A stretch of 43,417 nt of DNA from Gammaproteobacteria bacterium (GCA_002714245.1 PAWX01000071.1:1-43417), one strand, 5' to 3'. Shown: positions 21,246-38,503, numbered from the stretch's first letter. Notes: generated by a model not told the origin, from the sequence alone. Translations and numbers: made by a program.

Positions 21246-21827
21246 ATGGTCAGCAAACATCGGCAATTGTGGTGGTTTTTTGTTATCTGCATGCTCCCTT
21301 TCCAATTTTTACAAGCCCAGACTCAGATCATCAGCCTCAAAGACGCGCTCGAGACTCGTGGTACTGTGATCTTTTTTCGTCACGCTTTGGCACCAGGGTT
21401 CGGTGACCCGTCCAAGTTTCGGGTCGATGATTGCGCCACCCAACGAAATCTCGACCAGCGTGGCCGTGAGCAGTCGAAGCGGATTGGTAACCTATTCAAA
21501 TCTCTAGACTTTGCGACAGATATCGTCCATTCAAGTCCCTGGTGCCGTTGTCTCGAGACCGCACGGCTAATGGATATCGGACGAGTAGAATCGTTCGAGG
21601 GTCTGGGCTCTTTTTTTGAGGGCCACGTGGATCGGCAGGTGACACTCAAACTCCTCTCGGACAAGCTGTTAACGATCTCTAATCGTGACGAAACACCAGC
21701 GATTATGGTCACCCATCAGGTTGTGATCAGCGCAATCACCAAATTATTCACCTCCTCGGGTGACGCGATCTTGTATGATCCTAAGAGAGATATATCGCTA
21801 CGGATCCGACTGACTGAAAATGACTGA
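21246..21827 (+). CDS. Histidine phosphatase family protein, probably exported
   Basis: RHA motif, 'CATQRNL', 'SSPWCRC.ETA', 'VTH'; signal-peptide-like N-terminus. Confidence 0.85.
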   Translation: MVSKHRQLWWFFVICMLPFQFLQAQTQIISLKDALETRGTVIFFRHALAPGFGDPSKFRVDDCATQRNLDQRGREQSKRIGNLFKSLDFATDIVHSSPWCRCLETARLMDIGRVESFEGLGSFFEGHVDRQVTLKLLSDKLLTISNRDETPAIMVTHQVVISAITKLFTSSGDAILYDPKRDISLRIRLTEND

Positions 21828-23415
21828 TCGTCTTCACACAGACACACTGATCATCGGCGCCGGGAGCGCGGGCTGTGTGATTGCGAACCGGTTGTCAGCC
21901 AATCCCGAACACCAGGTAACCCTTGTAGAGGCTGGCGGCAAAGATAATTGGCACTGGATCCATATCCCGGTCGGCTATCTTTACACCATGGGGAATCCCA
22001 AAACAGACTGGTGCTACACAACAACGCCGCAAGAGGGCCTAAATGGCCGCAGCCTCGCATACCCACGTGGACGAGTCTTAGGTGGATGCTCGAGTATTAA
22101 CGGCATGATCTACATGCGTGGACAAAAAGACGACTACACGTCGTGGGGTGAGGGATGGTCATGGGACGACGTACTTCCCTATTACAAGAAGTCGGAGAAC
22201 TACCATCGAGGCGCCGACGACTACCATTCAGATCAGGGGGAGATGCTGGTTCAAGAGCAACGACTCAAGTGGGATGTTCTGGAGACATTTAAAAAAGTTT
22301 GTGAAGAGAACGGCTTCACTGACAGACCCGACTTCAACTGCGGAGATAACAGTGGGGTCGGTTATTTCGAGGTCACACAAAGAAAAGGGATCCGTTGGTC
22401 ATCGGCGCGCGCGTTCTTGCACCCGGTAATGCATCGATCAAACCTCACGGTAATGACCAAGACCTTGACCGTGCGACTCATCTTTGACGGAGACCGTTGC
22501 ATCGGTATGGAAGGAACCCGTCATGGCAAGCCTGTTTCAATTCGAGCAAAGCGTGTCGTTCTGGCCGCCGGCGCTGTCGGTTCACCATCACTCCTTGAGC
22601 GATCCGGGATTGGCTCTGAGGCGGTACTTAAACCACTGGGTATCCCTATCCGTAACCGACTCGAGGGTGTCGGTAAAAACCTACAAGACCATCTTCAGGT
22701 CCGGCTGCAATACCGCCTGGAGGCCGGCGAGACGCTCAACCAACACGCCAACTCATGGCTCGGTCGGATCAAAATGGGCCTGCACTACGCCTATAACCAG
22801 TCAGGGCCCTTGTCAATGGCCCCCAGCCAGCTTGGAGCTTTTTTTAAGTCGAGCGACGAGATCGATCGAGCTGACCTCGAATTCCATATCCAACCAATGA
22901 GCGCCGATAAACTTGGTACCGACCTCCATCCCTTTCCGGGAATGACCGCAAGCGTCTGTCATTTGCGGCCCGAGAGTCGGGGCACGGTCCACATCAGTGG
23001 TACGAACGCGTCGGATGCCCCGATTATTGACCCCAATTATCTATCCGAGACATACGACCGTGACGTCGTATGCAGGGCGATCGAAAAAACCAGAGACCTG
23101 ATGGACCATCCGCTACTCGCTGAGTTCTCACCATCCGAACACAAGCCGGGACGAACGCAGAAAACGGATCGCGACCTTGTCAAGGCCGCTGGTGATGTGG
23201 CGACAACAATTTTCCATCCTGTGGGGACCGCAAAGATGGGACCCGACACCGACGGTGAGGCGGTTGTATCCAGAAAACTCGGCGTCCATGGTTTACGTGA
23301 CCTTTATATCGCTGACGCATCGGTCTTTCCCACAATAACCAGTGGGAACACTCACGCTCCGGTCGTCATGATTGCCGAGCGGCTCGCGGAGTGGCTAGAT
23401 CAATCCGATGATTAG
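21820..23415 (+). CDS. GMC family flavin oxidoreductase (choline dehydrogenase-like)
   Basis: GAGSAG, 'GGCSSINGMIY.RG', 'NLQDHL', 'HPVGT.KMG', 'GNT.AP'. Confidence 0.92.
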   Translation: MTDRLHTDTLIIGAGSAGCVIANRLSANPEHQVTLVEAGGKDNWHWIHIPVGYLYTMGNPKTDWCYTTTPQEGLNGRSLAYPRGRVLGGCSSINGMIYMRGQKDDYTSWGEGWSWDDVLPYYKKSENYHRGADDYHSDQGEMLVQEQRLKWDVLETFKKVCEENGFTDRPDFNCGDNSGVGYFEVTQRKGIRWSSARAFLHPVMHRSNLTVMTKTLTVRLIFDGDRCIGMEGTRHGKPVSIRAKRVVLAAGAVGSPSLLERSGIGSEAVLKPLGIPIRNRLEGVGKNLQDHLQVRLQYRLEAGETLNQHANSWLGRIKMGLHYAYNQSGPLSMAPSQLGAFFKSSDEIDRADLEFHIQPMSADKLGTDLHPFPGMTASVCHLRPESRGTVHISGTNASDAPIIDPNYLSETYDRDVVCRAIEKTRDLMDHPLLAEFSPSEHKPGRTQKTDRDLVKAAGDVATTIFHPVGTAKMGPDTDGEAVVSRKLGVHGLRDLYIADASVFPTITSGNTHAPVVMIAERLAEWLDQSDD

Positions 23416-24439
23416 CGAAGAGCCCCAGATCATTTAAACGCTGATCCAGGCGCGGGAATACCCGCCTAGCGTTACCCTCAAAAAGCTTCTCCAGATCGCC
23501 ACGGGTCAGCCCTAGCTGGTCAATGTATTTCTTGGTATCGTCGAAATACTCCCCAGTGTTTGGATCGATTCCCTTCACCGCACCCAGCATCTCAGAACCA
23601 AACAACACATTGTCTGTGCCAATCACTGACAACAAGAGTTCTATGCCTGGCTTGTGGTAGACACAGGTATCAAAGTACACGTTTGTCATGATGTACTCTG
23701 ATGGCTCTGGTTTACCAAGCATCTGCGCGAGTCCACGGTACCTTCCCCAGTGGTAAGGAATAGCACCCCCGCCATGAGGGATAATAAAACGTAGGTCCGG
23801 GAACTCCGAAAATAAGTCACCCTGCACGAGCTGCATGAAGGCAGACGTGTCACCATTGATGTAGTGCGCGCCTGTCGTGTGGTGGCACTCATTACACGAC
23901 CCGGAGACATGAATCATCGCAGGAACGTCCAGCTCCACCATCACCTCATAAAGCGGGTACCAGTATGGGTCCGTTAATGGCTTCCCTGTCCAGTGGCCGC
24001 CCGAGGGGTCGGGGTTAAGGTTGAATCCAACGAACCCCATCCCGATACACCGGCGTAGCTCGTCGATTGCCGGCCCCAATGACTGGCCTCCCTCCTGCGG
24101 TAGCTGGCAGCCCGGTGCGAAGTTTTTGGGAAACAGCTCACAGACGCGGTGAATCAGGTCGTTACTCTCACGGGCCCAGGCGATAGATGTCTCTAGATCA
24201 GCCTGGTGCTGCCCCATCGCTGACGCCTTGGGGGAGAAAATCGTCATGTCCCCGCCACGTTCCTTGATCAACTTCAACTGATTATTTTCAATCGAATCGA
24301 TTATCTCGTCATCAGAGACTGCCGCCATCTTCGCGAGACTAGTGTCTTTACCCTCCGAAAACAGTCCAAGCTGTTCGTCCCGAAACGCTTGTAGCTTTGG
24401 AGACGATGTCGTGTAGTGGCCATGGCAATCGATAATCAT
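23366..24439 (-). CDS. ligJ: 4-oxalomesaconate (KCH) hydratase, amidohydrolase superfamily
   Basis: 'MIIDCHGHYTT', 'NPDPSGGHW', 'HTTGAHYIN.DT.AFMQ', 'PHGGGA.PYHWGR', 'FGSEM.GAV'. Confidence 0.9.
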   Translation of the reverse strand: MIIDCHGHYTTSSPKLQAFRDEQLGLFSEGKDTSLAKMAAVSDDEIIDSIENNQLKLIKERGGDMTIFSPKASAMGQHQADLETSIAWARESNDLIHRVCELFPKNFAPGCQLPQEGGQSLGPAIDELRRCIGMGFVGFNLNPDPSGGHWTGKPLTDPYWYPLYEVMVELDVPAMIHVSGSCNECHHTTGAHYINGDTSAFMQLVQGDLFSEFPDLRFIIPHGGGAIPYHWGRYRGLAQMLGKPEPSEYIMTNVYFDTCVYHKPGIELLLSVIGTDNVLFGSEMLGAVKGIDPNTGEYFDDTKKYIDQLGLTRGDLEKLFEGNARRVFPRLDQRLNDLGLFANHRIDLATPRAARQS

Positions 24440-24457
24440 TTTATATCCTCCTGTCGA

Positions 24458-25159
24458 TCAGTCTCTGGTCTCTTTGTCTTCGTCGTAGGTCACGTATTGC
24501 AGACCCATATCGAGGAGCCGTTGTCTCATATTGTTCATATCGAGACCCAGGGTCCCGTCCCGATACTTCCCCCTGACACCAGCCTCCCTGTCTTCACGCG
24601 CCTCAGATTTTTGTACCACCGAATCCAGCTCATGCCTACGCACAACGACGACCCCATCGTCGTCGCCGATAACCAGATCACTCGGGTTGACCACCTGCCC
24701 GCCACATACAACCGGGACGTTAACATCGCCAAGGGTCTCTTTAACGGTCCCCTGTGCCGAGATGCATCGACTGAAGACAGGGATATTCATTTGTCGTAGG
24801 TCGGCCAGATCACGGACACCTGAATCGATCACCAGCCCGGCGATCCCTCGAGCCTGCATCAGGGTCGCGAGAAGGTCGCCAAAGTAACCACAGTCTGACC
24901 GTGAGTTGACCGCGACCACCATCACGTCGCCCGGCTCACATTGCTCCATCGCGACGTGGATCATGACGTTATCGCCTGGGGTGGCGAACACGGTCACCGC
25001 CCGTCCGACCAGCTTTAACCCCTCCTTGATAGGCCTGATCTCGGGACTCAACAGACCCACACGGCCCTGAGCCTCGTGCACGGTGGCGACGCTGAGTTCC
25101 TTGTAACGGGTGACCGTCTCCGTTGGGATTGTGGGTATTCCGGTGACTACTTTTGGCAT
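24458..25159 (-). CDS. ligK: 4-carboxy-4-hydroxy-2-oxoadipate (CHA/HMG) aldolase
   Basis: 'VATVHEAQGR.GLL', 'PGDN.MIH', 'GYFGDLLA', 'GVRD', 'GTVKET.G', 'LGLD...MR'. Confidence 0.92.
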   Translation of the reverse strand: MPKVVTGIPTIPTETVTRYKELSVATVHEAQGRVGLLSPEIRPIKEGLKLVGRAVTVFATPGDNVMIHVAMEQCEPGDVMVVAVNSRSDCGYFGDLLATLMQARGIAGLVIDSGVRDLADLRQMNIPVFSRCISAQGTVKETLGDVNVPVVCGGQVVNPSDLVIGDDDGVVVVRRHELDSVVQKSEAREDREAGVRGKYRDGTLGLDMNNMRQRLLDMGLQYVTYDEDKETRD

Positions 25160-26124
25160 ATCGCCGCCTCCGTCTCTTTGTTTTTCAGCGACAGAATCTG
25201 ACCCAACAGGCTATCGACAACGTCGCGTTCGATTCCCCTACCGATGACCACCAAAACGTTCTCGGTGGGCCAACCAGAGTGGTTGTAGTCGAAGGTCACG
25301 TGCCGCCGGACCCCCTGAATAATCATGAATTGGTCACTACCATGCGTGCGGACCGTACCCTTCATCCTGAGAAGCCCGGGGCCAATTTGTTCGATCCATT
25401 CACCAAACAGATCCACAAACTCAGACTCGTCAACCGTCGCCTCCCAACGGATTGTTTGGGTCGTGTAGCCGTGGCCATCGTGGTGATATTCATGTCCGAT
25501 TGGGATCAGGCTCTGGCCTTGCATATAGCAATTTGCCGGACCCAAAAAGGTGTCCGTGGTGGGGAGGAGCTCATCCCTCAAAGACAGGACGTGCACATCG
25601 GAAAGCGGATTCAGGGACTGTAGTTGTTGTTTAAAATGATCTAGGTCCCGGGCTTCATCGTGTCTGTTGATAATAGATACTGATGCCATCGACAACTGCT
25701 CTGCGGCCGATTCTTGCGCCAACAGCCAGTCAAAGCTGTTCCTGCCGTCGACGACTGCCACCACCGACTGAAGCGAATAGGACCTGGAAAGGAACGAGCT
25801 TCCCTCAAAGAGTGGTATCAGGTCAGACGGATTCGAGATTCCACTGGTTTCGATCCAGACCGAGGTCTTGTCAGGGAAAAGGCTGGGAAGCTCGTGCAAG
25901 GTCCTGAGCAGGTCGTCTTTTACCGTACAACAGATGCACCCGCCATCCATCGCACGATAGGCGGTACCGGTCGAACCAATCTGCACAGAATCGAAGGACG
26001 CGTCACCAAAATCGTTCACGATCAAGACCGCATCTTTCAGTTGGCCCGACTGAATCAGTCCAAGCGCGAGCGTCGTCTTCCCGGCACCCAGGAATCCGGT
26101 GACTACACAGACTGGACGAGTCAA
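25147..26124 (-). CDS. COG0523/CobW-family metallochaperone GTPase
   Basis: GFLGAGKT Walker A, GCICC metal motif, ETSG, His-rich linker HEYHHDGH, CobW_C 'LRMKG'. Confidence 0.88.
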   Translation of the reverse strand: MTRPVCVVTGFLGAGKTTLALGLIQSGQLKDAVLIVNDFGDASFDSVQIGSTGTAYRAMDGGCICCTVKDDLLRTLHELPSLFPDKTSVWIETSGISNPSDLIPLFEGSSFLSRSYSLQSVVAVVDGRNSFDWLLAQESAAEQLSMASVSIINRHDEARDLDHFKQQLQSLNPLSDVHVLSLRDELLPTTDTFLGPANCYMQGQSLIPIGHEYHHDGHGYTTQTIRWEATVDESEFVDLFGEWIEQIGPGLLRMKGTVRTHGSDQFMIIQGVRRHVTFDYNHSGWPTENVLVVIGRGIERDVVDSLLGQILSLKNKETEAAICQK

Positions 26125-27239
26125 TGGACAGGCCCATGAGGCAACAACGAGACATGCACCACGTCCTCACTGATCTCCCCAGCCACGGCTCTTACCGCTG
26201 TATCAGCATCTTCCAATGGATAGGTGTGGGTCGTCACCAGATCCAGTGGGAACCGGTTTGAGGCAAGCTGCTCTAACGCTAGCTCACAAGACTGGTAGCC
26301 GTGGCCCCGAGCACTCTTGAAAGTAATCCACTTGACGGTGGCTTTGCCAAGCGGGAAGTTCGGAAACTCTGCCAGCTCGCCTTGTAGCAGGATGGTTCCC
26401 CCTTTCCGCTTGAGGGCCTCAACCCCTAGCATCACCGGGATCGTTCCGGCCCCGGACGTGCATTCAAGCGAGACATCGACCCCGATACCGCCGGTGATCT
26501 CCATAATCCGCTCGAGGGGATCCTCCTCACTCACGTTGATGGTATAATCCGCGCCCAGCTTCTTGGCAACCTCAAGGCGCCTCACGTCTTTGGCGGTGCC
26601 GGTCACGATAATGCACGAGGCACCCGCCTGCTTACAGGCAACGGTCTGAGCCATCCCCTGCTGGCCGGGGCCCTGAATTAATACCGACGAGTTGTAGCCC
26701 ACCCCACAATCGAACAGTGCCCACTCGATCCCGTTCGCCATCGGCGTGACGATCCCGGCGAGCTCTGGTGACACGCCCTTGGGGACCTTGTGCAGGACAG
26801 CGTTCCACGGCAGATACATATACTCAGCGAACCCACCCCAAAGATGAGGCGCAGACTCACACGAGGTGTATCCGTAGCGAATCGCATTGGGGTTATGCCG
26901 CCAGTCCGTTGAGGCACAGTGCCTGTACTCGCCCTTATGGCACCACTCGCACTGCATGCAGGTAACGTAGTGCTCGACGAACACGAGGTCACCTTCCTTT
27001 ACACCTTGACGCTCCGTGAATAATTTGCCGGCCTTTGCGATGTACCCGATGTTCTCGTGACCCATGATGACATGCTCGTCTTTCTGGGGTTTTTTGTACA
27101 TTTTCACGTCTGTGCCACAAATACCCGCCACCACGACTTTCATCAGCGCAGCATCCTCTGGTACGTCCGGCATAGGGTACTCCCGCATCTCCATCTGCGA
27201 CGCACCAACGCGAACCATCGCCTTCACCATCTCCGACAT
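26121..27239 (-). CDS. Zn-dependent medium-chain dehydrogenase
   Basis: GICGTD, GHE, CxxCxxC...C structural zinc site, GPGxxG. Confidence 0.9.
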   Translation of the reverse strand: MSEMVKAMVRVGASQMEMREYPMPDVPEDAALMKVVVAGICGTDVKMYKKPQKDEHVIMGHENIGYIAKAGKLFTERQGVKEGDLVFVEHYVTCMQCEWCHKGEYRHCASTDWRHNPNAIRYGYTSCESAPHLWGGFAEYMYLPWNAVLHKVPKGVSPELAGIVTPMANGIEWALFDCGVGYNSSVLIQGPGQQGMAQTVACKQAGASCIIVTGTAKDVRRLEVAKKLGADYTINVSEEDPLERIMEITGGIGVDVSLECTSGAGTIPVMLGVEALKRKGGTILLQGELAEFPNFPLGKATVKWITFKSARGHGYQSCELALEQLASNRFPLDLVTTHTYPLEDADTAVRAVAGEISEDVVHVSLLPHGPVH

Positions 27240-27374
27240 ACCAATCTCCTAAAATAGAACCCACAGTTTACCGACTCAATTCTCAGGAGCTATATTCAAT
27301 TCGGAACCACTGCAAAACAAACTTGATTGAGCAGAACCCTCGCATCTGCACCACCAAACTGGAACGATATATAT

Positions 27375-27659
27375 ATGAGAAGCGCGCTCAAGCAGCGATC
27401 GGAAGTTTATCGACTAGAGAGATTAATCCTCCAACGATTCGAGCTGCACCCGGGCACGATGCTGTTAATTGAAGAGCATTGGCCACGTGACCCGGGGTTC
27501 CCTGTACGGATGAGCGTGTTCTCGTTTTGGCTTGGGGACGTCCGGCACGGGTTCACGGTATTTAAACGTCTCGAAGAGGTCGACGACGGAGATTTTCCTC
27601 CTGGCTGGATGAAAAATCGACTAATCAGATTTGAGCCAATGGGATGCAGCTGCTGCTGA
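27375..27659 (+). CDS. Small conserved hypothetical protein with C-terminal CxCC
   Basis: 'DPGFP...FW...RH.F.VFK.LEEV...D.PP.W...GCSCC'; resembles a small family often auto-labelled 'nitrate reductase'. Start at ATG 27375 is inferred. Confidence 0.65.
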   Translation: MRSALKQRSEVYRLERLILQRFELHPGTMLLIEEHWPRDPGFPVRMSVFSFWLGDVRHGFTVFKRLEEVDDGDFPPGWMKNRLIRFEPMGCSCC

Positions 27660-27684
27660 GATAACAATAAAAAGGATGGTCAGG

Positions 27685-28626
27685 ATGGGTCTTAAAGCTG
27701 TCTCGCGGAGTCAGGGCGCTAACCAAGACATCAAGAGTGGGCAAATAAAACCAAAAGGGTTCGAGCTTGATTTCGAGGAGTGGCCGGTCCTCGTCAAGGC
27801 CTTCCGTGCGATGGTCCGAGAGCAAGCGTTCGATGTCTGTGAGATGGCCCTGACCACCTACATCTGTGCCCGACAACACGGCGTACCCCTGATCGGGATC
27901 CCTATATTTCTAGTCCGAGGATTTCACCACGATAAGATTAGTGTCGCCAAAGACTCAAACATCCGGAGCGTCGAGGACCTAGCCGGGACAAAAATCGGGG
28001 TGAACCGAGGATACACGGTCACGACAGGTGTGTGGGCGAGAACCATACTAGATAGGGAGGGGTTGGACCTGAACCAAGTGACCTGGGTTCGATCGAGCGA
28101 CGAGCACGTTGAAGCCTATTCACCCCCTAAAAACGTTGAAATGATTCCTGAAGGAAAGTCGCTCGAGGAGATGCTGGTCTCTGGTGAGCTGGGCGCCGTG
28201 GCAGGCATGGCGCCGGACGACTTTAGTTCAGATAAGGTACGAACCTTGATTACAGACCCAGACCAGTCAGCGCTACTCGCGCTCGATCGGAGCGGTTTTT
28301 ATCCAATCAACCACCTGATCGTGATGACGGAATCTATCGTAGAGACGTTCCCGACACTACCCGAGGCGCTATTCGAATGTTTTTCAGAGCAAAAGAGACA
28401 GTACCTGGAAAGCCTGACTGCAAGACCCACGGCGGACAATGACGAAATCGATGCCCGCAACCGGAGACTCCAGTCGTTGGGGTTCGATCCACTACCCTAT
28501 GGGATCGAACCAAACGAGCAGGTACTCAACGAGTTGATTGAGTCTGGGCTGCGCCAGAAAATTTTATCCCCGACCACCGGATGGGGGGACTATTTCTGCG
28601 GCTCGGTGCTTAATCTAAATGGCTAA
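27685..28626 (+). CDS. 4,5-dihydroxyphthalate decarboxylase-like protein (type 2 periplasmic-binding fold, no signal peptide)
   Basis: 'FDVCEMALTTY', 'IPIF..RGFHH', 'GYTVTTGVW.R', 'YPINH', 'DPLPYGIEPN'; ATG 27685 with AAGGA SD. Confidence 0.75.
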   Translation: MGLKAVSRSQGANQDIKSGQIKPKGFELDFEEWPVLVKAFRAMVREQAFDVCEMALTTYICARQHGVPLIGIPIFLVRGFHHDKISVAKDSNIRSVEDLAGTKIGVNRGYTVTTGVWARTILDREGLDLNQVTWVRSSDEHVEAYSPPKNVEMIPEGKSLEEMLVSGELGAVAGMAPDDFSSDKVRTLITDPDQSALLALDRSGFYPINHLIVMTESIVETFPTLPEALFECFSEQKRQYLESLTARPTADNDEIDARNRRLQSLGFDPLPYGIEPNEQVLNELIESGLRQKILSPTTGWGDYFCGSVLNLNG

Positions 28627-29486
28627 GCGCGGTAGAAATCGTCGAAAAATGTAAACACAGAATCGCTGTTCTGGGCATCAATCGGGAGATCCAGGAACCG
28701 CGAGTCTGACAGACATTCCTTCACAAAGTGGGCCGCTGATCGTGCGTGGCTCTCATCAGCCCCTGGCAAAATACACACCGGTCGCGCGATCTGCATCAGT
28801 TCCTCGGGTCTCGGCCCCGGTGCACTGTCACAGTCGAACATGGCCCTGTAGCTTGCCTGTACCAGCCTCCCATAAGCCGCCTCGTCACATGTTCTCAGCG
28901 ACTCAGAGAGCCCCTCATCGACGCGGAGAGAACCGCCCCACGGGCCAAGCGTAGAGTCCTTCGCGAACCCAACCTCGGAGCCAAGCGCTTTCTCGATCAA
29001 GGCCCCGGTCCCGTGTTCTGAGACCCAGGCCAAGTGAGTCGAAAATCGGCCAAAGTTACGGATCCGATACCTCGCCCCACCCACCGGCCAGACAAGGTTA
29101 AGGCTCGTCGTAAGATTCGGATACAGACGTGCGAACTCCGATGCCGGAGCGCACCCGAGGCATCCGCCGATCACATGCGCAGATCGCTGTCCGAGTTGTT
29201 CGAGTACAGCATTTCCGTGTCTTGCCATCCCCGCGAAATCCAGTATCTCTAACCGACCGCCTGATTTGCCGCACTCTCGTCGATCAAACAAGATACAAGT
29301 GAAACGGTCAGCCAAGTAGCTCATGATGTCGATTTTCTTGTAGATGCCAAGATCGGTCCATTTCTCAAGCGTCGCATCAAAACCGCCCGGAGAAAACATC
29401 AAAAGCGGCTCGCCTTTACCGATAACAGATACCCGGGTCGGAATACCATCAGCGTCTAACATTTGAGTCGTAATTTTTGTCATCAC
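28623..29486 (-). CDS. Alpha/beta-fold hydrolase with Cys nucleophile
   Basis: 'PGGF' oxyanion loop, 'FDRRECG.S', elbow GGCLG, 'PG.D.SH'. Confidence 0.85.
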   Translation of the reverse strand: MMTKITTQMLDADGIPTRVSVIGKGEPLLMFSPGGFDATLEKWTDLGIYKKIDIMSYLADRFTCILFDRRECGKSGGRLEILDFAGMARHGNAVLEQLGQRSAHVIGGCLGCAPASEFARLYPNLTTSLNLVWPVGGARYRIRNFGRFSTHLAWVSEHGTGALIEKALGSEVGFAKDSTLGPWGGSLRVDEGLSESLRTCDEAAYGRLVQASYRAMFDCDSAPGPRPEELMQIARPVCILPGADESHARSAAHFVKECLSDSRFLDLPIDAQNSDSVFTFFDDFYRA

Positions 29487-30295
29487 TTTCTACCAAGACC
29501 GCCCTTGATCTGTTTTCCGGATCGGATATCTCCGAGCAACTCGGTCACCGCATCCCGACTCGTCTGGGCAGTGTAGGCGTATGCGCTTGGCGGGTTGTCT
29601 AGGAACTTGGTCCCGTAACCGACCGCTGCGTGAAACATCCGTATCCGACCATCGAGCCACGGACCACCGCCCATGCCCCCAATAACAGGAATACCTACAG
29701 CATCTGTTATAGCCTCACCAATCACGGGCCCGGCGTTTGTCAGATCGATCATGGCCGCACCAGCCTGCTCGCAGACCTGAGCCTCCTGAATCAACTGTTC
29801 CATCATCTCATCAGGAACAAGACTCTCCGGTTGCTGTAGGTCACCAATACTAATCCCATACTTTGAACCCGACTGGGGACTGAGACCCATCTGTGCAAAT
29901 ACAGGAACACCCGCCCGAGTCACAGCAGTAACAGCCTCAGGGAAATCGGGGGCAGCATCAATCTTTACCAGATCAGCCCCTCCCTCCTGGACGAGTCTGA
30001 TCGCGGCACGGACCGCCTCCGTGGGATCGATTTGCACGGGACCGTAGGGAATGTCTGCACACACAAGTGCATCAGGTGCACCACGCCGGACAGCCTTTAC
30101 GGCGACCAGGAAGTCGTCCAGCGTGATCTCCAGATTGTTCGAGTGGCCCCAAAGATTGACCCCAACAGAGTCACCAACGATAAGGAAGTCAGCCCCACAC
30201 TCGTGTGCGATGTGCGCAGTCGGGGCGTCCCAAACAACCAACGCGGCAGACTTCTCGCCGATTCCTTTCATGGCCTGTATCTGGTTGATGTTCAT
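29483..30295 (-). CDS. Divergent PanB-like (ketopantoate hydroxymethyltransferase-fold) enzyme
   Basis: 'VGDSVG', 'ADIPYG', 'VKID', 'MGLSPQ'; residues equivalent to PanB H136 and E181 are changed; ATG 30295 after AGGAG. Confidence 0.8.
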   Translation of the reverse strand: MNINQIQAMKGIGEKSAALVVWDAPTAHIAHECGADFLIVGDSVGVNLWGHSNNLEITLDDFLVAVKAVRRGAPDALVCADIPYGPVQIDPTEAVRAAIRLVQEGGADLVKIDAAPDFPEAVTAVTRAGVPVFAQMGLSPQSGSKYGISIGDLQQPESLVPDEMMEQLIQEAQVCEQAGAAMIDLTNAGPVIGEAITDAVGIPVIGGMGGGPWLDGRIRMFHAAVGYGTKFLDNPPSAYAYTAQTSRDAVTELLGDIRSGKQIKGGLGRK

Positions 30296-30316
30296 ACTCA
30301 CTCCTGAACCTTACAA

Positions 30317-31321
30317 TTAGCCGTAACGATCATAAAATACCTGATCCGACGGGACCCGGTAGTGGCGGACAATCTCCTGCTCTACCGCGCCGGCCATAAG
30401 TGGCGGCCCGGCGAAGTAAAGATCGACCTCATTGAGGCGCTCGTCGAGTTTTTGTTTGGCCAGTTCGTGAACGAATCCCTCAAAGACACGACCATCGTCG
30501 GTACCGGATCTATCAGTCAACGCGACCTCATAATTGATCCAGTCACCATAACTTGGCATAACCGACAAGAACTGCTCACCCGCAATATCTTCCACGGCGC
30601 GGCCACCATAATAAAAGAAAACCTGTTCTGTCGTGCGCGCGCTTGATGCGGCCTCGATGGCTCGCGCAACAGAGACCATGGGGGATAACCCGGAACCTCC
30701 AGCGATTAGCACGATATCTCTACCACGAAACCCTCGAAAATAGCCGCGACCGTAGGGTCCGATGATGTCACACTCGAGTCCCACCTCAGCGTCGTCGAAC
30801 AGAGCCGTGGTCGCGGCACCACCGGGCACTCTCTTGATTTGGAAATCCCAGACACCATCGCCTCCCCCGATGTTACACATCGAGTAAGCTCGGGACCCAG
30901 GGACACCCGGGACGTCAATCAGGGCAAACTGACCGGGCTCAAACGCCTGACTCGAGTGAGTCTCAAAACGAAACTCGGAGATGTCATGGGTAACCTCCTC
31001 TATCGCCACCAGCCGCGAACTAAAACGAGACGGGTTGTGCACAGGCTCGTACTGGTCAAACAGGCGTACCTTGATCTTTAGATCACTCTTCGGTACGCAC
31101 TGACAGGCGAGATGCCGATTCCTCTGCAGGTCTCGCTCGGTGAGGATTTCTGGCTCACCGTTAGGATACTCGATGTCCCCCGATAGCAACTCAAAACGGC
31201 AGTTTCCGCAACTCCCAGACGCGCACTCATACGGAAACCCAAGCCCCTGCTCAAGGGCCGATCGCAGCAAAAAATCGCCACCACAGCCAAAAGAAATCCC
31301 ATCTTTAATTTGTACCTTCAA
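30317..31321 (-). CDS. 2Fe-2S ferredoxin/FAD/NAD(P)H oxidoreductase (oxygenase reductase component, TmoF/XylA-like)
   Basis: CASGSCGNC...C plant-type 2Fe-2S, RAYS flavin motif, GGSGLSP, AGPP, C-terminal 'YDRYG'. Confidence 0.9.
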   Translation of the reverse strand: MKVQIKDGISFGCGGDFLLRSALEQGLGFPYECASGSCGNCRFELLSGDIEYPNGEPEILTERDLQRNRHLACQCVPKSDLKIKVRLFDQYEPVHNPSRFSSRLVAIEEVTHDISEFRFETHSSQAFEPGQFALIDVPGVPGSRAYSMCNIGGGDGVWDFQIKRVPGGAATTALFDDAEVGLECDIIGPYGRGYFRGFRGRDIVLIAGGSGLSPMVSVARAIEAASSARTTEQVFFYYGGRAVEDIAGEQFLSVMPSYGDWINYEVALTDRSGTDDGRVFEGFVHELAKQKLDERLNEVDLYFAGPPLMAGAVEQEIVRHYRVPSDQVFYDRYG

Positions 31322-31339
31322 TGCTACACTCTCCTACCC

Positions 31340-32947
31340 TTAAGACATACCATGACCCTGAAATATCAATGACTTAACAGTCACCGGCACGGTCCGTGAC
31401 GGCAGCCGGATTCGGCCTAGGTCAACAAACTCGAATTCTTTGAAGCGGAGACCGTCGAGCACCAGCAGCGGTCTCCCGATTTCATGTTCAGTCGTCAGAA
31501 TCCGCCCCACACTTTGGGCGAGATCCCGGTCGAACAACAAATAAAGCGCTGAGTCGCGGTGCTCTGTGTCCGACTCTATGTAACCAACAATGGAATCACA
31601 AAAACGCTTCAGTAGCTCATAGTCAAAATCGCCTAACCACTCAAACGCCAGAGCAAATTCTTCGTAGTCAGTTAAATCAAACTCGGTAACTGACCGTATT
31701 AACCGACACTTAAGGTCATCAGAAGTAAGATTTCCTGCGTCAACCGTCAGCCGTATCACTGGCATATTTTTCCGTGGCAACAATAGCCCGGGATCCGACA
31801 AATAACCGGTATTTCCGCTGACCTGAATATTGAACTCAGATGCTCCCAGTGCCGTCGCCCGTATCCCTCCTCGCGCAGCCTCGAATCGAATATTACTCTT
31901 CCATTCATTGAGCGCGTTCAGAAGCTGGTTACCGAGTGACTGGCCAATATCGTTGTGTCCATCAGCATCAGCATCAGCAATGTACTCGGACACGCCACCA
32001 GAGAAAATGACGGTACCGACATCGGGCGGGATCTCCAGCGGATTGGTCAGCCACCGGGCATCGGAACGCTGCTTGCCTGTGACAATGTCGAAAATGATAC
32101 TCGACAAGTGTTCGCCTAGCGCGGTGATCATCGTATCCGAAACCATATCGCCCAACCCAATCTCATGGCCGAGGTCAGACAGTACCTCGGCGGCACGTGG
32201 CTCTATCCGACTGATCTGGCCCTGTGCGTCCCAGACAAATAATCGGCCACCGACATGGAACGCCGCGGTCTGGATCAAGCTACCGTCTCGAATCAGCGCG
32301 AGCTTGGTGGTTCCCCCACCGATATCCACGTTGAGCACGCACGATGACTCTTTGCCCGATAATTCCACCGCACCTGAACCATGTGCCGCAAGATTGGACT
32401 CCATATGATGACCCGCGCTGGCGCTCAGAAAGTCTCCACCCTTGTGAGCGATCACGTGCGCTATCCCCTCCGCATTTTGGCGCCTCAATGCCTCCCCAGT
32501 CAGTAGCACGACCCCGATATCGACGTCGTGTGGCGTCACGTCAGCCTCTCGATAGGCCTGATCGATCAGCGAGCCCAGCGCCCGAGCATCGATTTCAGTG
32601 GCATCCGCGTAGGGAGTAAAGAAAATTGGTGACTGATACAACAACCGTCTGTCGACAACTACGTAGCGGGAGCTCAGTGCCTCTCCCTGCCGCTCAAGAT
32701 GAACCTGAGAAAAGACTACCTGTGTACTGCTTGAGCCGATATCGACCCCGACAGTGGACAGGAAGATATTGTCCTGCTGCCACAGCGGATTATCTTCAAG
32801 CGGACCGTCATCAAAATCGTCATCATGATCATGATCGTAGTGATGCCCCGGTACATGAGTGTGCTCATTAAAAATACCGTATTCGTGATCTGAAAGTGCG
32901 TGCCCAGCGTCGTCGGCGTCTGCACTCTTATTATTTGGCTTCGCCAA
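31340..32947 (-). CDS. eutA: EutA-like ASKHA-fold ATPase with His/Asp-rich N-terminus
   Basis: 'VGVDIGSSSTQ', 'LLTGEA', 'NVDIGGGTT', 'FSGGVSE', 'IRAT.LGA', 'VPVTVKSLIF'. Likely TTG start at 32947 (frame open to 33001). Confidence 0.82.
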   Translation of the reverse strand: MAKPNNKSADADDAGHALSDHEYGIFNEHTHVPGHHYDHDHDDDFDDGPLEDNPLWQQDNIFLSTVGVDIGSSSTQVVFSQVHLERQGEALSSRYVVVDRRLLYQSPIFFTPYADATEIDARALGSLIDQAYREADVTPHDVDIGVVLLTGEALRRQNAEGIAHVIAHKGGDFLSASAGHHMESNLAAHGSGAVELSGKESSCVLNVDIGGGTTKLALIRDGSLIQTAAFHVGGRLFVWDAQGQISRIEPRAAEVLSDLGHEIGLGDMVSDTMITALGEHLSSIIFDIVTGKQRSDARWLTNPLEIPPDVGTVIFSGGVSEYIADADADGHNDIGQSLGNQLLNALNEWKSNIRFEAARGGIRATALGASEFNIQVSGNTGYLSDPGLLLPRKNMPVIRLTVDAGNLTSDDLKCRLIRSVTEFDLTDYEEFALAFEWLGDFDYELLKRFCDSIVGYIESDTEHRDSALYLLFDRDLAQSVGRILTTEHEIGRPLLVLDGLRFKEFEFVDLGRIRLPSRTVPVTVKSLIFQGHGMS

Positions 32948-33107
32948 AGATGTTCGCCCCCATAGCAAGAATGTTTCGTTCCTATCGTCCTCTGGACACA
33001 CTTTTTCTGAGTATCATTGCTACCATCGAATCCAAGCCTGTTGAAGACATATTTTTATCTGGCGGGTGAATTTGTTCACTTCGCCATGGAGGTTTTTGAG
33101 GAATATC

Positions 33108-34226
33108 ATGAGTAAAAATGCCATCGTTTCAGACGATCTAGCAAAAAAATTCGCGAAGGAAAAGGATACCCCATACCTAAAATGGGTCCGCGATCAGGGG
33201 CTCGATATCATTGACGCTCTATACGTCAAGAATCTGAACCATGTCGAGCTCAAACCCTGGCCCCGCCGCGGTGGCTCGGGTGTATACATAAACCATGATG
33301 CGTCTCGCACGACCAATGACTGTTATGTGTGTGAGATCCCCGCCGGAAAAAAACTGGAACCCCAGAGCCAGTTATTCGAAGAAACTGTGATGATCCTGTC
33401 GGGACACGGGAAAACGACAGTCAAAAACTTTGCGGGACAGGAGGTCGAGTTCGAGTGGGGTCCCGGGGCTCTGTTCGCCATCCCGCTGAATACACTACAT
33501 CAACACTTCAACCTATCAGGATCTCAGCCGGCTCGGTATGTCGCGGTAACCAATGCGCCACCAATATTAAATACCTACGGTGACCCAGAGTTCGTCTTCA
33601 ACACCCGCCACGACTTCCCAGAGCGCTTCAGCGGTGACCCTGAGTTTTTCTCAGGCAAGGGCGAACAGAAAGGCCTGCTGTTGGAGACTAACTTTGTTCC
33701 GGACGGCGTCAATTTACCGCTGATTGAGGCAAAAGAGCGCGGCGCCGGGGGCGGCCATATCCGTTTCAATTTCGCGAAGAGTTCATTGAATAGCCACATC
33801 TCGCAGTTCCCCTTAGGTACCTACAAGAAGGCACACGCTCACGGCCCGGGCGCTCATGTGATTATTCTCAGTGGGTCCGGTTACTCTCTGATGTGGCCCG
33901 AGGGCGCCGAGCCTGAGCGCTTCGATTGGGAAGTTGGCTCGATGATCGTGCCACCTAATATGTGGTACCACCAACACTTCAACACGGGCACCACACCCGC
34001 GCGTTATCTGGCATTCAAATATGAGGGAGTCGCGATCCGAAACGCACAGGGGGTTCCCAAGGCGTGGATCAGTAAACGCATCGGCGGTCATCAGATCGAC
34101 TACGCTGATGAGACCCAAGAGGTGCGTGATCTATTTGAAAAAGCACTCGCTATGAACGGTCTATCCACTCAGATGACCGAGGCCTATGAGAGAGAACTAG
34201 AGGACCTTCCGCCAAAACCTGCATAA
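33108..34226 (+). CDS. Bicupin-domain protein (gentisate dioxygenase-like fold), function unknown
   Basis: Two cupin repeats: 'QLFEE..ILSG.G.T...HQHFN' and 'HAHGPGAH.IILSG.GYS...HQHFN'; ATG 33108 after GAGGA. Confidence 0.85.
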   Translation: MSKNAIVSDDLAKKFAKEKDTPYLKWVRDQGLDIIDALYVKNLNHVELKPWPRRGGSGVYINHDASRTTNDCYVCEIPAGKKLEPQSQLFEETVMILSGHGKTTVKNFAGQEVEFEWGPGALFAIPLNTLHQHFNLSGSQPARYVAVTNAPPILNTYGDPEFVFNTRHDFPERFSGDPEFFSGKGEQKGLLLETNFVPDGVNLPLIEAKERGAGGGHIRFNFAKSSLNSHISQFPLGTYKKAHAHGPGAHVIILSGSGYSLMWPEGAEPERFDWEVGSMIVPPNMWYHQHFNTGTTPARYLAFKYEGVAIRNAQGVPKAWISKRIGGHQIDYADETQEVRDLFEKALAMNGLSTQMTEAYERELEDLPPKPA

Positions 34227-34228
34227 AC

Positions 34229-34254
34229 AAAAAGGGCCGCAGATGCGGCCCTTT
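34229..34254. terminator. Bidirectional intrinsic terminator
   Basis: AAAGGGCCGC-AGAT-GCGGCCCTTT perfect hairpin with A/T tails, between the convergent cupin and small membrane protein genes. Confidence 0.85.
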
Positions 34255-34268
34255 CCATACATTAGGTA

Positions 34269-34463
34269 TCAACTCTTTTTCGCGACACGACCGATCAGCA
34301 AGAAAGAGACAGCAACTGCACCAAGCACGAGAAGTAAGTGCTCGCCGCTAAGCACATGCCCGACCAGCTGGGCAATCATCATGGAGCCATGGTCGCCATG
34401 AGCAAGCACTGGGGCAGCAACTGAAGAGAGGCCCGCGACGGATAGAACGCTTGTAGGTTTCAT
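34269..34463 (-). CDS. Small His-containing membrane protein resembling the HupE/UreJ N-terminus
   Basis: Signal peptide ending AxA-H, then HGDHG, 'GHVLSGEHLL' and a TM helix; GAGGT SD; followed by a terminator. Confidence 0.65.
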   Translation of the reverse strand: MKPTSVLSVAGLSSVAAPVLAHGDHGSMMIAQLVGHVLSGEHLLLVLGAVAVSFLLIGRVAKKS

Positions 34464-34712: not shown

Positions 34713-36434
34713 CTAAACCTCATTCCCGATCCAGAGAAAACGATAGGGGGCCAGACAGAGAGGGCCGCTTCGATCAGTGACGCTGGCTCCTTCAACTAGA
34801 TCGATCCAAGCCTGATCGATAGTTAGATTCAAATTACCAACGTCTAGCATTCTCGTCTCATTAGTGACATTGAATACAGCAAAAATATTTTGTCCACGAT
34901 CCAGGCTTTGCCTCCAGAACCCAAACAAACCGGGGCCAAGATGAAGCGTCAACATTGTTGCGTTCGGATGAAAGGCCTTCTGCTTCTTCCTCACCCGGAT
35001 AAGCGCGAGGAGCCTCGTTAGCACACGACTGTGCCGAGAATCTCCATTAGCCAGATGCGATTCCAGTTGTTCTTGGTCCCAAACGTGTCTATTGATCGAG
35101 CGCAGGTTGCCGGTATTTTCGACCCGTGAAAGATCATTCTCTGTCGCCACAAGGCTGTGTACATAGATCGCCGGGATACCCTCCAGCGCCAGTAATATGG
35201 CGTGCGCACAGATGAAACGATGAAACTGATACTTATCCTTACCCTGCTCAACCGTCCCAGCCAGCGCGTCCCAGAGCGAAATATTGATCTCGTAGGGCTG
35301 CGCATCACTCGCTTGCGTGGCCCGGTAGCTCAATCGACCACCAAATCCTACCATGGTGTCGGTCAGTCTCTTAAGTTCGGTAGCCGACAGGAGACCTTCT
35401 ACAGGCCTGAGACCTATCCCATCGTGAGACGCCAAAAAATTAAAATATGCGGTCCCCATCCGGGCCGGTGGCATCGTCATCATCCACCGCTTGAGCTGAG
35501 AATAGTCACCGGTAATCAAGGTATTCAGCAAAAGCGGTGGCAACGAAAAATTATAGATCAGATGAGCCTCGTCCTGGTCCCCGAAATAACTCAAATTCTC
35601 AATATTTGGAATATTTGTCTCCGTGATTACTACTGATTTTTTTGATTTATTTTCAACAAGTAGTCGGATTAATTTAATAACAGTATGAGTTTTTGGAAGA
35701 TTGATACATGAAGTACCCAGCTCTTTCCAGACAAAACCAACTGCGTCCAGCCTGAACCAAGAAATTCCCTTCTCCAAATATCGGTGAATAATTTTCAGGA
35801 ACTCCAATAAAACCATTGGATTTTTAAAGTTGAGGTCAACCTGATCGTGGCTAAACGTGCACCAAACCAGAATCTCTCCAAGATCCGTACGGGTCGGCCT
35901 AAGAAGTTCTGATGTACGCGGCCTGACAACCTGATCAATCGCCGCATCAGGTACCACTGTAATAAAGAAATCTTTTCCGGGATCCCTCCCCTTCTTAAAA
36001 TTTTCAAACCACAGACTACGTGTCGAGCAATGGTTCAAGACAAGGTCTCCCATAATCTTGAAGTGCTCCCCGACGGCCTCGAGTTGACCCCAATTACCAT
36101 GGCTCGGATTCACGCTTGAGTAGTCAATCACGCTGAAACCGTCGTCGGAACTGTACGGAAAGAACGGTAAAATATGTACAACCGAAAAGATTTCTTTCAG
36201 GTGACGATCGACAAACTGCTTGAGCGTCTCTAGCGGGGTTCTGGACGCCGAGGTGATGCTGTCGGCATAGGTAATCAATACGATATCGTCACTGTTCCAG
36301 AGCGCCGCATTAGAATCGGATAGCAACATACTCCCGTCGATGTCCATCGCCTCGAGGCATTGATCGGTCAATGCTAAGATATCGTGGTCAGGGTACAGTT
36401 CCGCGAGATGCGCGGTTACATTTTGAACCAGCAA
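34713..36434 (-). CDS. Glucosylglycerate phosphorylase (GH13_18 sucrose phosphorylase family)
   Basis: 'SSDDGF', 'WCTFS.DQ.DL', nucleophile RLDAV, acid/base ITETN, 'ASHDGIG', 'PYEIN'; ETN and YEIN are glucosylglycerate-type signatures. Confidence 0.85.
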   Translation of the reverse strand: MLVQNVTAHLAELYPDHDILALTDQCLEAMDIDGSMLLSDSNAALWNSDDIVLITYADSITSASRTPLETLKQFVDRHLKEIFSVVHILPFFPYSSDDGFSVIDYSSVNPSHGNWGQLEAVGEHFKIMGDLVLNHCSTRSLWFENFKKGRDPGKDFFITVVPDAAIDQVVRPRTSELLRPTRTDLGEILVWCTFSHDQVDLNFKNPMVLLEFLKIIHRYLEKGISWFRLDAVGFVWKELGTSCINLPKTHTVIKLIRLLVENKSKKSVVITETNIPNIENLSYFGDQDEAHLIYNFSLPPLLLNTLITGDYSQLKRWMMTMPPARMGTAYFNFLASHDGIGLRPVEGLLSATELKRLTDTMVGFGGRLSYRATQASDAQPYEINISLWDALAGTVEQGKDKYQFHRFICAHAILLALEGIPAIYVHSLVATENDLSRVENTGNLRSINRHVWDQEQLESHLANGDSRHSRVLTRLLALIRVRKKQKAFHPNATMLTLHLGPGLFGFWRQSLDRGQNIFAVFNVTNETRMLDVGNLNLTIDQAWIDLVEGASVTDRSGPLCLAPYRFLWIGNEV

Positions 36435-36446
36435 TGAATCCCTCTC

Positions 36447-37667: not shown

Positions 37668-37678
37668 CCGCTAGATCC

Positions 37679-38503
37679 TCAAATTAGTTCTCTTAAAACA
37701 ATTGTTCTGACGGCCTCGTACCAACCACTTGGTCCGGTGCGTTTGGTGCGATAGACCGGTGATTTCGTTTCTATGTCGGGAAAACCATGCCTCTCCGACC
37801 TGATTAATACGGGATAGTCGGCGTCCGCTAACATTTGCGCGTCATTCTCACTATCTCCCAAGGCCATTATCTTGTAGTCTTTTTCGTGGACTAGCCTCAT
37901 CCGGTTGACTAACCAACGTTGGGCCAGATTTTTATCTGTATCTCCCATAAGGTGAACAAAACGTCCCCCCATCACCAGGCGTAACCCCTCGGACAACGCC
38001 ATGTCTGATAATTTCTTTAAAGAAGCTTCGCTGTCACGCCAAAGAAGCGGCTCTGAGAACTCACGCGTCTGCGCCATTAGAACATCGTATCCGCTTAGAC
38101 CGGTAACCGACGCACATTCTGCCTCTGACATCTGAGTCAACGCAGTGTACTTGAAAGCCTCGCCCGCCGAGTTCACGAAGTCTTTGATTCGTTGGTGCGA
38201 TACGCCTAACACACAACGGAGGTAGCTGTGGGCCGGTTCAAGCCCCTTAGTGCCAGCGATCTCATGATCGAGTGGCACGTAAACCGCGGATCCATTCTCA
38301 ACAACAAACGGTTGATGATTACCCATCGAACGCCTGATCTTGAGCATCTCCGGAAAGGTTTTGCTTGAATTAAAGACCACCGGTATACCCTGAGTGTTCA
38401 AGGTCTCAAACAGTGAGTCAGCCGGAGAGGCCCTATAAGTCTCATCGTCCAAGAGCGATCCATCGAGATCGGTGAAAATAATCAGATCCTTCATACACCT
38501 CAT
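37679..38503 (-). CDS. gpgP: Glucosyl/mannosyl-3-phosphoglycerate phosphatase (HAD-IIB)
   Basis: DLDGSLLD, SSKT, ENG, 'REFSEP', 'GGRF.H', GDSEND; first gene of the operon. Confidence 0.85.
   Translation of the reverse strand: MRCMKDLIIFTDLDGSLLDDETYRASPADSLFETLNTQGIPVVFNSSKTFPEMLKIRRSMGNHQPFVVENGSAVYVPLDHEIAGTKGLEPAHSYLRCVLGVSHQRIKDFVNSAGEAFKYTALTQMSEAECASVTGLSGYDVLMAQTREFSEPLLWRDSEASLKKLSDMALSEGLRLVMGGRFVHLMGDTDKNLAQRWLVNRMRLVHEKDYKIMALGDSENDAQMLADADYPVLIRSERHGFPDIETKSPVYRTKRTGPSGWYEAVRTIVLRELI

Follow-up and report, generated by a model that had tools for sequence, protein, structure and literature searches.

The closest described counterpart of the locus considered here is the isophthalate system of Comamonas, which comprises isophthalate dioxygenase (IphA, or IPDO; PDB 9INA), the reductase IphD, the PdxA-type dehydrogenase IphB, the TctC-type receptor IphC and the IclR regulator IphR, and which shares with this locus the lower end of protocatechuate 4,5-cleavage. 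In the protocatechuate/gallate 4,5-cleavage pathway of Sphingobium sp. SYK-6, that end is formed by LigJ and LigK. Three further reference points are PanB, the ketopantoate hydroxymethyltransferase of E. coli (PDB 1M3U), EutA, the reactivase of adenosylcobalamin-dependent ethanolamine ammonia-lyase (PF06277), and the bicupins gentisate 1,2-dioxygenase (GDO) and oxalate decarboxylase (OxdC). Relatives of these proteins are encoded together in a cluster at positions 23366–34463 of a stretch of 43,417 nucleotides (the window) from a Gammaproteobacteria bacterium (GCA_002714245.1, PAWX01000071.1). The window is one whole contig, C71, of a 1.87-Mb assembly that is 78% complete, and the nearest relatives of the source genome are uncultured marine Gammaproteobacteria/Pseudomonadales. 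Our verdict is that the cluster represents a real, conserved, uncharacterised catabolic system, a variant of the Rieske-initiated aromatic-acid pathways that feed LigJ/LigK. We give an even chance to the more specific reading that it is this genome's share of a widespread system for the catabolism of a meta-dicarboxylated aromatic or hetero-aromatic acid.

The probable entry oxygenase and the LigJ/LigK exit

The window encodes a Fer2-FAD-NAD reductase, which an earlier note, made from the DNA alone, had taken for an orphan in a pathway without a Rieske oxygenase. For the contig itself the absence was confirmed: C71 contains no match to LigB, PrpF or a Rieske protein, and none of ligAB, ligC, ligI and ligU. 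For the genome the proposal did not hold, as contig C4 encodes an oxygenase similar to isophthalate dioxygenase together with a Rieske ferredoxin, and these most likely account for the reductase. The two C4 genes are divergent, and the same arrangement is found in loci L092–L094 (labels of this type denote loci of relatives), where orthologues of the reductase adjoin the ferredoxin and oxygenase genes. The assembly encodes no second reductase of this type, and the window protein is most simply explained as the third component of the C4 oxygenase. In L004, the closest of the relatives with complete flanks, the position of the reductase (6713–7923) is occupied by two short open reading frames (ORFs) of 226 and 147 aa, not one 334-aa gene, which may reflect a frameshift or an assembly error.

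The C4 oxygenase is 69–73% identical to copies encoded beside the bicupin or PanB-like gene elsewhere, and all belong to one orthologue group. Of the solved structures, Comamonas testosteroni KF1 isophthalate dioxygenase (9INA/9IOY, E 1.2e-147) is its nearest relative, ahead of the phthalate-family oxygenases 7FHR and 7FJL, and the C4 protein falls in the LigXa_C/carbazole-dioxygenase group. The specificity residues of isophthalate dioxygenase (PMC12445078) were mapped via alignment onto 43 orthologues. The carboxylate anchors R234 and H257 are retained in all 43, including the C4 copy, G172 in 42 and V178 in 41; I246 is kept or replaced by Val, and I294 is retained or conservatively replaced (I294/V). 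T175 is Ser, F333 is often Ile, and F249 is Arg in 41 of the 43. In isophthalate dioxygenase, the F249H substitution gave rise to an additional contact with carboxylate at the ortho face (PMC12445078). Arg at the F249 position, combined with the retained anchors, suggests a meta-dicarboxylated ring with a further anionic or polar group.

Several other genes accompany the oxygenase gene on C4. It is followed by an unannotated gene of 170 aa, and a dienelactone hydrolase gene, two small cupin genes and another decarboxylase-like gene are located nearby. Proteins of 167–182 aa are always encoded directly downstream of the oxygenase, as on C4 (locus L096, 3734–4246), in L098 (9487–9999) and in L100 (5855–6358); they have no Pfam, NCBIfam or credible ESM Atlas match and may be an unrecognised subunit or accessory factor. 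The two small cupins of C4 (L096, 6109–7265), of 188 and 191 aa, are adjacent, with up to 83% identity across phyla; they resemble one gentisate 1,2-dioxygenase barrel apiece and so, taken together, look like a split bicupin. Such a pair occurs in ∼40% of bicupin loci.

TctABC/TctC transporters and IclR regulators belong to the known iph/tph systems, and genes for both recur near loci related to the cluster. The likeness to the Comamonas system is not limited to the oxygenase (E 1e-147), but there are differences. Isophthalate dioxygenase has two components, whereas the present system has three, among them a Rieske ferredoxin and a reductase whose N-terminal domain is a plant-type Fer2. In place of a PdxA-type IphB, the cluster contains a Zn-dependent dehydrogenase (Zn-ADH) and a binding-protein-fold protein related to 4,5-dihydroxyphthalate decarboxylase (hereafter decarboxylase-like). 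The PanB-like protein, a hydrolase with a Cys nucleophile (Cys-hydrolase), a small CxCC protein, the bicupin and the EutA-like ATPase are extra relative to the Comamonas system, and the oxygenase here lies outside the cluster.

At the other end of the proposed pathway, the window LigJ aligns over its full length with solved structures (E 1.5e-137 to 6dxq/6dwv, residues 1–340; E 1.2e-133 to 2gwg). The window LigK passes the NF006731 equivalog cut-off (308.4 bits against 179) and lies just below that of TIGR02798 (290.6 against 304.5). Both are genuine orthologues of the characterised enzymes, in agreement with the earlier proposal that the cluster ends in LigJ/LigK chemistry. A full protocatechuate 4,5-cleavage operon is present on contig C3 (10571–17589), with genes for LigA, LigB, LigC, a DUF1932 protein, LigJ, LigK, a PrpF-type LigU and a LigI-like amidohydrolase; a DctP-type transporter gene follows it. 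The C3 ligJ and ligK are 55% and 52% identical, respectively, to the window copies. Because the C3 operon has its own ligJ and ligK, those of the window are extra, dedicated copies, which, without ligAB, ligC, ligI and ligU alongside, would serve another feed.

These data bear on an ordinary isophthalate or phthalate upper pathway that leads to protocatechuate and into the C3 ligABC-JKUI operon, with the window ligJK redundant and the PanB-like, hydrolase and bicupin genes as passengers. Such a pathway would be in line with an oxygenase that is closest to isophthalate dioxygenase and retains its carboxylate-binding residues, with the reductase, dehydrogenase and dihydroxyphthalate-decarboxylase-like protein of the window, and with the complete lig operon. 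We nevertheless consider it quite improbable. The PanB-like, hydrolase, Zn-ADH, LigK and LigJ genes are syntenic with the oxygenase gene across phyla, unlike passengers, and the replacement of F249 by Arg argues against plain isophthalate. Moreover, the PdxA-type diol dehydrogenase of the known iph/tph systems is outside the cluster (the sole PdxA of the genome is on contig C29), and the Rieske ferredoxin does not fit a two-component enzyme. The earlier note had named ligABCIU and a Rieske oxygenase elsewhere in the genome as a possible full account of ligJK and the reductase. Both sets exist and the reductase finds its partner in this way, but the C3 operon, with its own ligJK, does not explain the window ligJK, the PanB-like gene or the hydrolase.

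Two conserved modules in other genomes

The gene set of the cluster matched no curated family as a set, and a literature search found no description of it, consistent with the earlier statement that no characterised pathway has this composition. The claim that the genes occur together elsewhere also stood. The full set is present in four marine relatives (L004, L101, L103 and L105), with the order of the window repeated in L101, L103 and L105, and eight cluster genes are present in Rhodobacteraceae (L077 and L079). A core of PanB-like, hydrolase, decarboxylase-like, Zn-ADH, LigK and LigJ genes is found in L100 (Pseudonocardiaceae), L098, L141, L147 and L153. In L098 and L100, genes for the Rieske oxygenase, the 170-aa protein, the PanB-like protein and the hydrolase are followed by a divergent pair (RpiB-like and decarboxylase-like) and then by Zn-ADH, LigK-like and LigJ-like genes; L141, L147 and L153 repeat the order of L098. 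As the same genes recur together in other phyla, their grouping is not due to chance.

Co-occurrence was counted from two seeds, in each case within the best-scoring 80 of many more matches. Seeding from the bicupin gave 48 loci in which the orthologue is flanked by at least 8 kb in both directions. Seeding from the PanB-like gene served as an independent test of the earlier proposal; a metagenome scan gave 80 more loci, and the 18 with at least 5 kb on both sides were counted. The PanB-seeded loci contained Zn-ADH in 16 cases, the decarboxylase-like gene in 12–13, the small protein and the hydrolase in 11 each and a Rieske oxygenase in nine. The bicupin and the EutA-like gene were each present in only two, so the pair is an add-on to these loci and not part of their core, and the earlier idea of a pathway built on a metal-matured cupin was not upheld. 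In the 48 bicupin-seeded loci, the EutA-like gene adjoined the bicupin gene in 42, and a Rieske oxygenase of the LigXa_C type was found in 20, a Rieske ferredoxin in 17, a reductase in 14, an IclR regulator in 16, the pair of small GDO-like cupins in 19–22 and a paralogue of the decarboxylase-like gene in 16. PanB-like, hydrolase and Zn-ADH genes were present in three. The cluster joins two conserved modules, which are tied via a common isophthalate-dioxygenase-like Rieske system.

The first module (module A) consists of the PanB-like protein, Cys-hydrolase, small CxCC protein, decarboxylase-like protein and Zn-ADH, with or without LigK-LigJ, and recurs in Actinobacteria, Alphaproteobacteria and many metagenome contigs. 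The PanB-like protein shares the PanB fold family, but scores below the NCBIfam cut-offs (TIGR00222, 152 against 207.55; NF001452, 182 against 272). Compared with E. coli PanB, it retains S46 and the metal/2-oxo-acid ligands D45, D84 and K112, whereas the catalytic E181 is Thr, H136 is Gln and E114 is conservatively replaced by Asp. The same changes are present in L004, L077 and L079, and the family has thousands of members at ∼55% identity, all annotated as PanB. Unlike PanB, it always adjoins the Cys-hydrolase and Zn-ADH in catabolic loci, without panC or panD. When the assembly was searched by tblastn with the PanB-like protein, no other panB was found; either a true panB exists outside the assembled sequence or pantothenate must come from external sources. 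In 11 of the 18 PanB-seeded loci the hydrolase gene immediately follows the PanB-like gene, and the nucleophile elbow of the hydrolase, GGC[LM]GC (GGCLG in the window), is kept in L004, L077 and L079. Both the rewired PanB and the Cys-hydrolase of the earlier note are thus confirmed, with changes conserved in the orthologues. The small protein of ∼94 aa, which ends in CSCC, has no Pfam or NCBIfam match; its homologues are divergent from Zn-ADH in 11 of the 18 loci. The decarboxylase-like protein matches 4,5-dihydroxyphthalate decarboxylase (PDB 9jp7, E 3.2e-29) and is 45–48% identical among PanB-seeded loci. Zn-ADH is ∼70–98% identical across lineages (median 72% in the PanB-seeded loci), and in L095 its gene directly follows that of the Rieske oxygenase.

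The second module (module B) consists of the bicupin and the EutA-like ATPase, with or without metal-related genes. More than 5,900 bicupin homologues were scored, and the best 120, at 70–97% identity, span Alpha-, Beta- and Gammaproteobacteria, Actinobacteria and others. Cultured bacteria that carry the bicupin/EutA-like/Rieske set include Limnohabitans sp. 15K, Methylocella sp. CPCC 101449, Phyllobacterium spp. and Aromatoleum toluclasticum. An alignment of the bicupins has a mean column identity of 81%, with invariant His residues in both barrels; the N-terminal barrel lacks HxH (it reads NH[DE]AS), and the C-terminal barrel contains HxH(x4)H...HxH. The likeness to gentisate 1,2-dioxygenase and oxalate decarboxylase lies in the two-cupin build of ∼370 aa, the weak match to the GDO structure 3bu7 (E 0.002) and the His clusters of both barrels. 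There was no match to TIGR02272 (gentisate 1,2-dioxygenase) or any curated family. An AlphaFold2 model from a shallow alignment (mean predicted local distance difference test score, pLDDT, of 64.5) returned only generic bicupins in Foldseek, with OxdC, vicilins and GDO on top at a template modelling score of ∼0.46, and identity to any solved bicupin is only ∼14–17%. The ESM Atlas gave unnamed cupin clusters, and a plasmid collection contained only bicupin paralogues of 37% identity. The window bicupin is further set apart by its ATPase partner, which known bicupin enzymes do not need.

The EutA-like protein matches the EutA Pfam family over its full length (E 3e-100) and belongs to the ASKHA ATPase fold family, but its best NCBIfam score (286 against a cut-off of 598) is below all EutA equivalogs. 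Its constant neighbour is a bicupin and not a B12 enzyme, and the 78%-complete assembly yielded no EutB. A His/Asp-rich N-terminus is common to the orthologues, many of which carry a His-rich tail at the C-terminus as well. A prediction of the complex between the EutA-like protein and the bicupin scored 0.61, which was matched by the control at 0.73 and so speaks neither for nor against an interaction. The CobW-family GTPase is below all NCBIfam equivalog cut-offs; it is conserved in L004, L101, L103 and L105, and a CobW gene also adjoins the Rieske ferredoxin gene in L092. The 64-aa His-rich membrane protein is kept beside the bicupin in L003 at 70% identity. The ATPase partner, CobW, the membrane protein and the NicO-, ArsP- and Fbp-type transporters found elsewhere together point to a demanding metal centre in the bicupin. 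The genome contains two further bicupin/EutA-like pairs, on C3 (33573–36226) and on contig C20 (21269–23987), which are 30–37% identical to the window pair, although the genome is <2.5 Mb. Both further pairs adjoin a gene for a TauD-family dioxygenase, and genes for OCD/mu-crystallin, TctA, aldo-keto reductase and aldehyde dehydrogenase are nearby.

The modules could also be functionally unrelated neighbours, module A being a catabolic operon and the bicupin, EutA-like ATPase, CobW and membrane protein forming a separate metal-dependent or metal-handling system. The low counts of each module around the other's seed (two of 18 and three of 48 loci) fit this explanation. So do the very different neighbourhoods of bicupin orthologues, which include Fbp/Pot-type ABC transporter, TctABC, NicO and chromate-transporter-like genes, and the TauD-family genes beside the further pairs of this genome. 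We regard it as unlikely, since both modules are found independently with the same orthologous Rieske oxygenase, which has the same pocket signature (20 of 48 and nine of 18 loci). In addition, the bicupin and Rieske oxygenase genes of Rhodobacteraceae L077 are adjacent on one strand, beside PanB-like, hydrolase and Zn-ADH genes, and the EutA-like gene of the window shares its strand with the reductase, PanB-like and hydrolase genes, at gaps of 16–19 bp.

A single catabolic system remains our preferred reading, and several observations weigh against it. LigK and LigJ were found in only six and five of the 18 PanB-seeded loci, respectively, and LigJ/K in one of the 48 bicupin-seeded loci. The tallies, drawn as they are from best-scoring matches, are biased towards close relatives. 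The core lacks a recognised ring-cleavage dioxygenase unless the cupin supplies one, and the bicupin is rare in PanB-seeded loci. The kinship of the decarboxylase-like protein with the solved decarboxylase (∼30% identity) is overall similarity only. In this genome the oxygenase gene is on another contig than the cluster, so that their co-regulation is putative. Finally, the bicupin orthologues are 72–77% identical across phyla in very different neighbourhoods, a pattern that does not sit easily with a peripheral role in catabolism.

Layout of the cluster and neighbouring genes

As the earlier note had described, the cluster consists of twelve tightly packed ORFs with two divergent junctions, and the gene labels were confirmed by Pfam, NCBIfam and PDB sequence searches (Table 1). 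Four or five transcription units are predicted. The junctions lie between Zn-ADH and the small protein and between the EutA-like gene and the bicupin gene. On the minus strand, ligJ, ligK, the CobW-family gene and Zn-ADH make up one unit, in which genes overlap by 13 and 4 bp; the small protein and decarboxylase-like genes diverge from it. The hydrolase, PanB-like, reductase and EutA-like genes form a second minus-strand unit, with a 4-bp overlap followed by gaps of 16 and 19 bp. The bicupin gene is divergent from this unit, and the gene for the His-rich membrane protein comes next, on the opposite strand. Start codons of the bicupin (ATG 33108), decarboxylase-like (ATG 27685) and small protein (ATG 27375) genes were corrected from alignments; that of the small protein was set by an upstream stop codon in L004.

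Table 1. Features of the cluster and a related gene at the contig end, in window coordinates
Feature	Position	Strand	Basis
ligJ paralogue (4-oxalomesaconate/2-keto-4-carboxy-3-hexenedioate (KCH) hydratase, Amidohydro_2)	23366..24439	-	Pfam PF04909 E 1.6e-54
ligK paralogue (4-carboxy-4-hydroxy-2-oxoadipate (CHA) aldolase/oxaloacetate decarboxylase, RraA-like)	24458..25159	-	NF006731
COG0523/CobW-family GTPase, putative metallochaperone	25147..26124	-	Pfam cobW + CobW_C
Zn-dependent medium-chain dehydrogenase (Zn-ADH)	26121..27239	-	Pfam ADH_N + ADH_zinc_N
Small protein, ∼94 aa, C-terminal CSCC, first gene of its unit	27375..27659	+	no family match
Binding-protein-fold protein, 4,5-dihydroxyphthalate decarboxylase-related	27685..28626	+	PDB 9jp7; weak Pfam NMT1
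Alpha/beta-fold hydrolase, Cys nucleophile elbow, translationally coupled to PanB-like gene	28623..29486	-	Pfam Abhydrolase_1
PanB-like protein, altered active site	29483..30301	-	Pfam Pantoate_transf E 1e-56
Fer2-FAD-NAD reductase, BenC/MmoC/CarAd architecture	30317..31321	-	Pfam Fer2, FAD_binding_6, NAD_binding_1
EutA-like ASKHA ATPase, His/Asp-rich N-terminal tract	31340..33001	-	Pfam EutA E 3e-100
Bicupin	33108..34226	+	Pfam Cupin_2 (weak)
64-aa His-rich single-pass membrane protein, possibly metal-related	34269..34463	-	no family match
Thiamine pyrophosphate (TPP)-dependent enzyme, N-terminus, truncated by contig end	43107..43415	+	tblastn 66% identity to L095 TPP enzyme

A TPP-dependent enzyme is present in 13 of the 48 bicupin-seeded loci, and its gene adjoins MFS_3 in L004 and L077. 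The genes upstream of ligJ (GMC oxidoreductase, histidine phosphatase, LysE, L-2-hydroxyglutarate oxidase-like, SDR and TAXI-TRAP) have no counterpart in related loci and were excluded from the system. Among them, the gene for the GMC (choline-dehydrogenase-like) oxidoreductase (21820–23415) converges on ligJ, and the 3′ ends of the two overlap by 50 bp. On the other side of the cluster, a sucrose-phosphorylase-like GH13 gene, a glucosyl-3-phosphoglycerate synthase gene (NF040724, E 1e-101, under cut-off) and a HAD phosphatase gene (34713–38503) are located between the bicupin and SDR/ABC-2/MFS genes. They are absent in L004 and likely form a compatible-solute unit of the glucosylglycerate type.

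DNA nearly identical to that of the cluster is present in seawater metagenomes of several studies, and contigs from seawater RNA libraries of three studies, at ≥99% identity, span most of the cluster genes. As DNA carry-over is not excluded for these contigs, which show neither strand, level nor operon structure and in which uncovered bins are not evidence of silence, they lend weak support to expression of the cluster in situ.

A proposed route and its alternatives

The data show what the genes encode, which of them occur together, where the Rieske partner lies (on C4) and which residues of its substrate pocket are conserved; we infer the substrate class, the order of steps and all roles given below to the PanB-like, hydrolase, bicupin and EutA-like proteins. 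The upper pathway is most likely Rieske-initiated rather than cupin-based, and, to judge from the pocket, its substrate probably has one additional substituent, polar or anionic. In the first step, a three-component enzyme of the isophthalate dioxygenase family, with oxygenase and ferredoxin from C4 and reductase from the window, would attack the ring. Zn-ADH and the decarboxylase-like protein may then process the oxygenated product by oxidation and possibly decarboxylation, and the Cys-hydrolase, as an analogue of the lactonase LigI, may handle a lactone or amide intermediate. The PanB-like protein would act on a 2-oxo-acid intermediate; it may plausibly be a LigU-like tautomerase or a lyase, as it keeps the 2-oxo-acid/Mg ligands of PanB and has lost the base. 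Dedicated LigJ and then LigK would hydrate and split a tricarboxylate of the 4-oxalomesaconate/CHA type to pyruvate and oxaloacetate. The bicupin may belong to the same regulon as an accessory metal enzyme that probably cleaves a ring or uses oxygen in another way, and it could supply ring cleavage in the lineages that carry its gene. The His-rich EutA-like ATPase, perhaps together with CobW and the small membrane protein, would service the bicupin's metal centre.

A core with dedicated LigJ/LigK and no ring-cleavage dioxygenase might also be expected if the substrate were a heterocycle. In such a scheme, an isophthalate isostere of the pyridine or pyrone dicarboxylate type, for example 2,4-pyridinedicarboxylate (2,4-PDCA), would be catabolised or salvaged: dioxygenation beside the heteroatom would open the ring, the Cys-hydrolase would serve as amidase or lactonase, and LigJ/LigK would receive a carbon skeleton that corresponds directly to oxalomesaconate/CHA. 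The oxygenase pocket, which retains two meta-carboxylate ligands and gains an Arg, is compatible with such substrates. Angular dioxygenation by members of the carbazole-dioxygenase group leads to spontaneous opening of the hetero-ring, and the C4 oxygenase falls in this group. It can also be reasoned that the skeleton of 2,4-PDCA (C7, branched at C4) equals that of CHA. The LigAB product CHMS (4-carboxy-2-hydroxymuconate semialdehyde) is converted with ammonium to 2,4-PDCA spontaneously (PMC12417764), and the genome encodes LigAB. However, a C7-to-C7 route needs no decarboxylase-like protein, the system has no deaminase or recognisable amidase, and a literature search found no published pathway of this kind for 2,4-PDCA-type compounds. 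Although 2,4-PDCA is an attractive candidate substrate, we consider this scheme highly improbable.

A broader version, which we judge to be decidedly improbable when taken as a whole, is that the conserved core is an undescribed route for an isophthalate isostere (2,4-pyridinedicarboxylate, pyrone dicarboxylate or benzene tricarboxylate) in which ipso or angular attack by the Rieske enzyme, in the manner of carbazole dioxygenase, replaces a ring-cleavage dioxygenase. The rewired PanB would then be a 2-oxo-acid tautomerase or lyase, the Cys alpha/beta-hydrolase a lactam or lactone hydrolase, and the bicupin a new metalloenzyme that relies on the EutA-derived ATPase to insert or renew its metal.

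In summary, the Rieske-initiated, meta-dicarboxylated acid system that we prefer links three items that are unexplained singly: a widespread bicupin/EutA-like pair, a large family of altered PanB paralogues that databases annotate as enzymes of pantothenate biosynthesis, and a Zn-ADH that is ∼70% identical across phyla. All three connect to one entry enzyme with a readable pocket, the relative of isophthalate dioxygenase, and to one exit, LigJ/LigK. With both the entry enzyme and the exit defined, the chemistry is directly testable. The cluster also points to a common carboxylated compound, aromatic or heteroaromatic, with turnover in seawater, lakes and soils.

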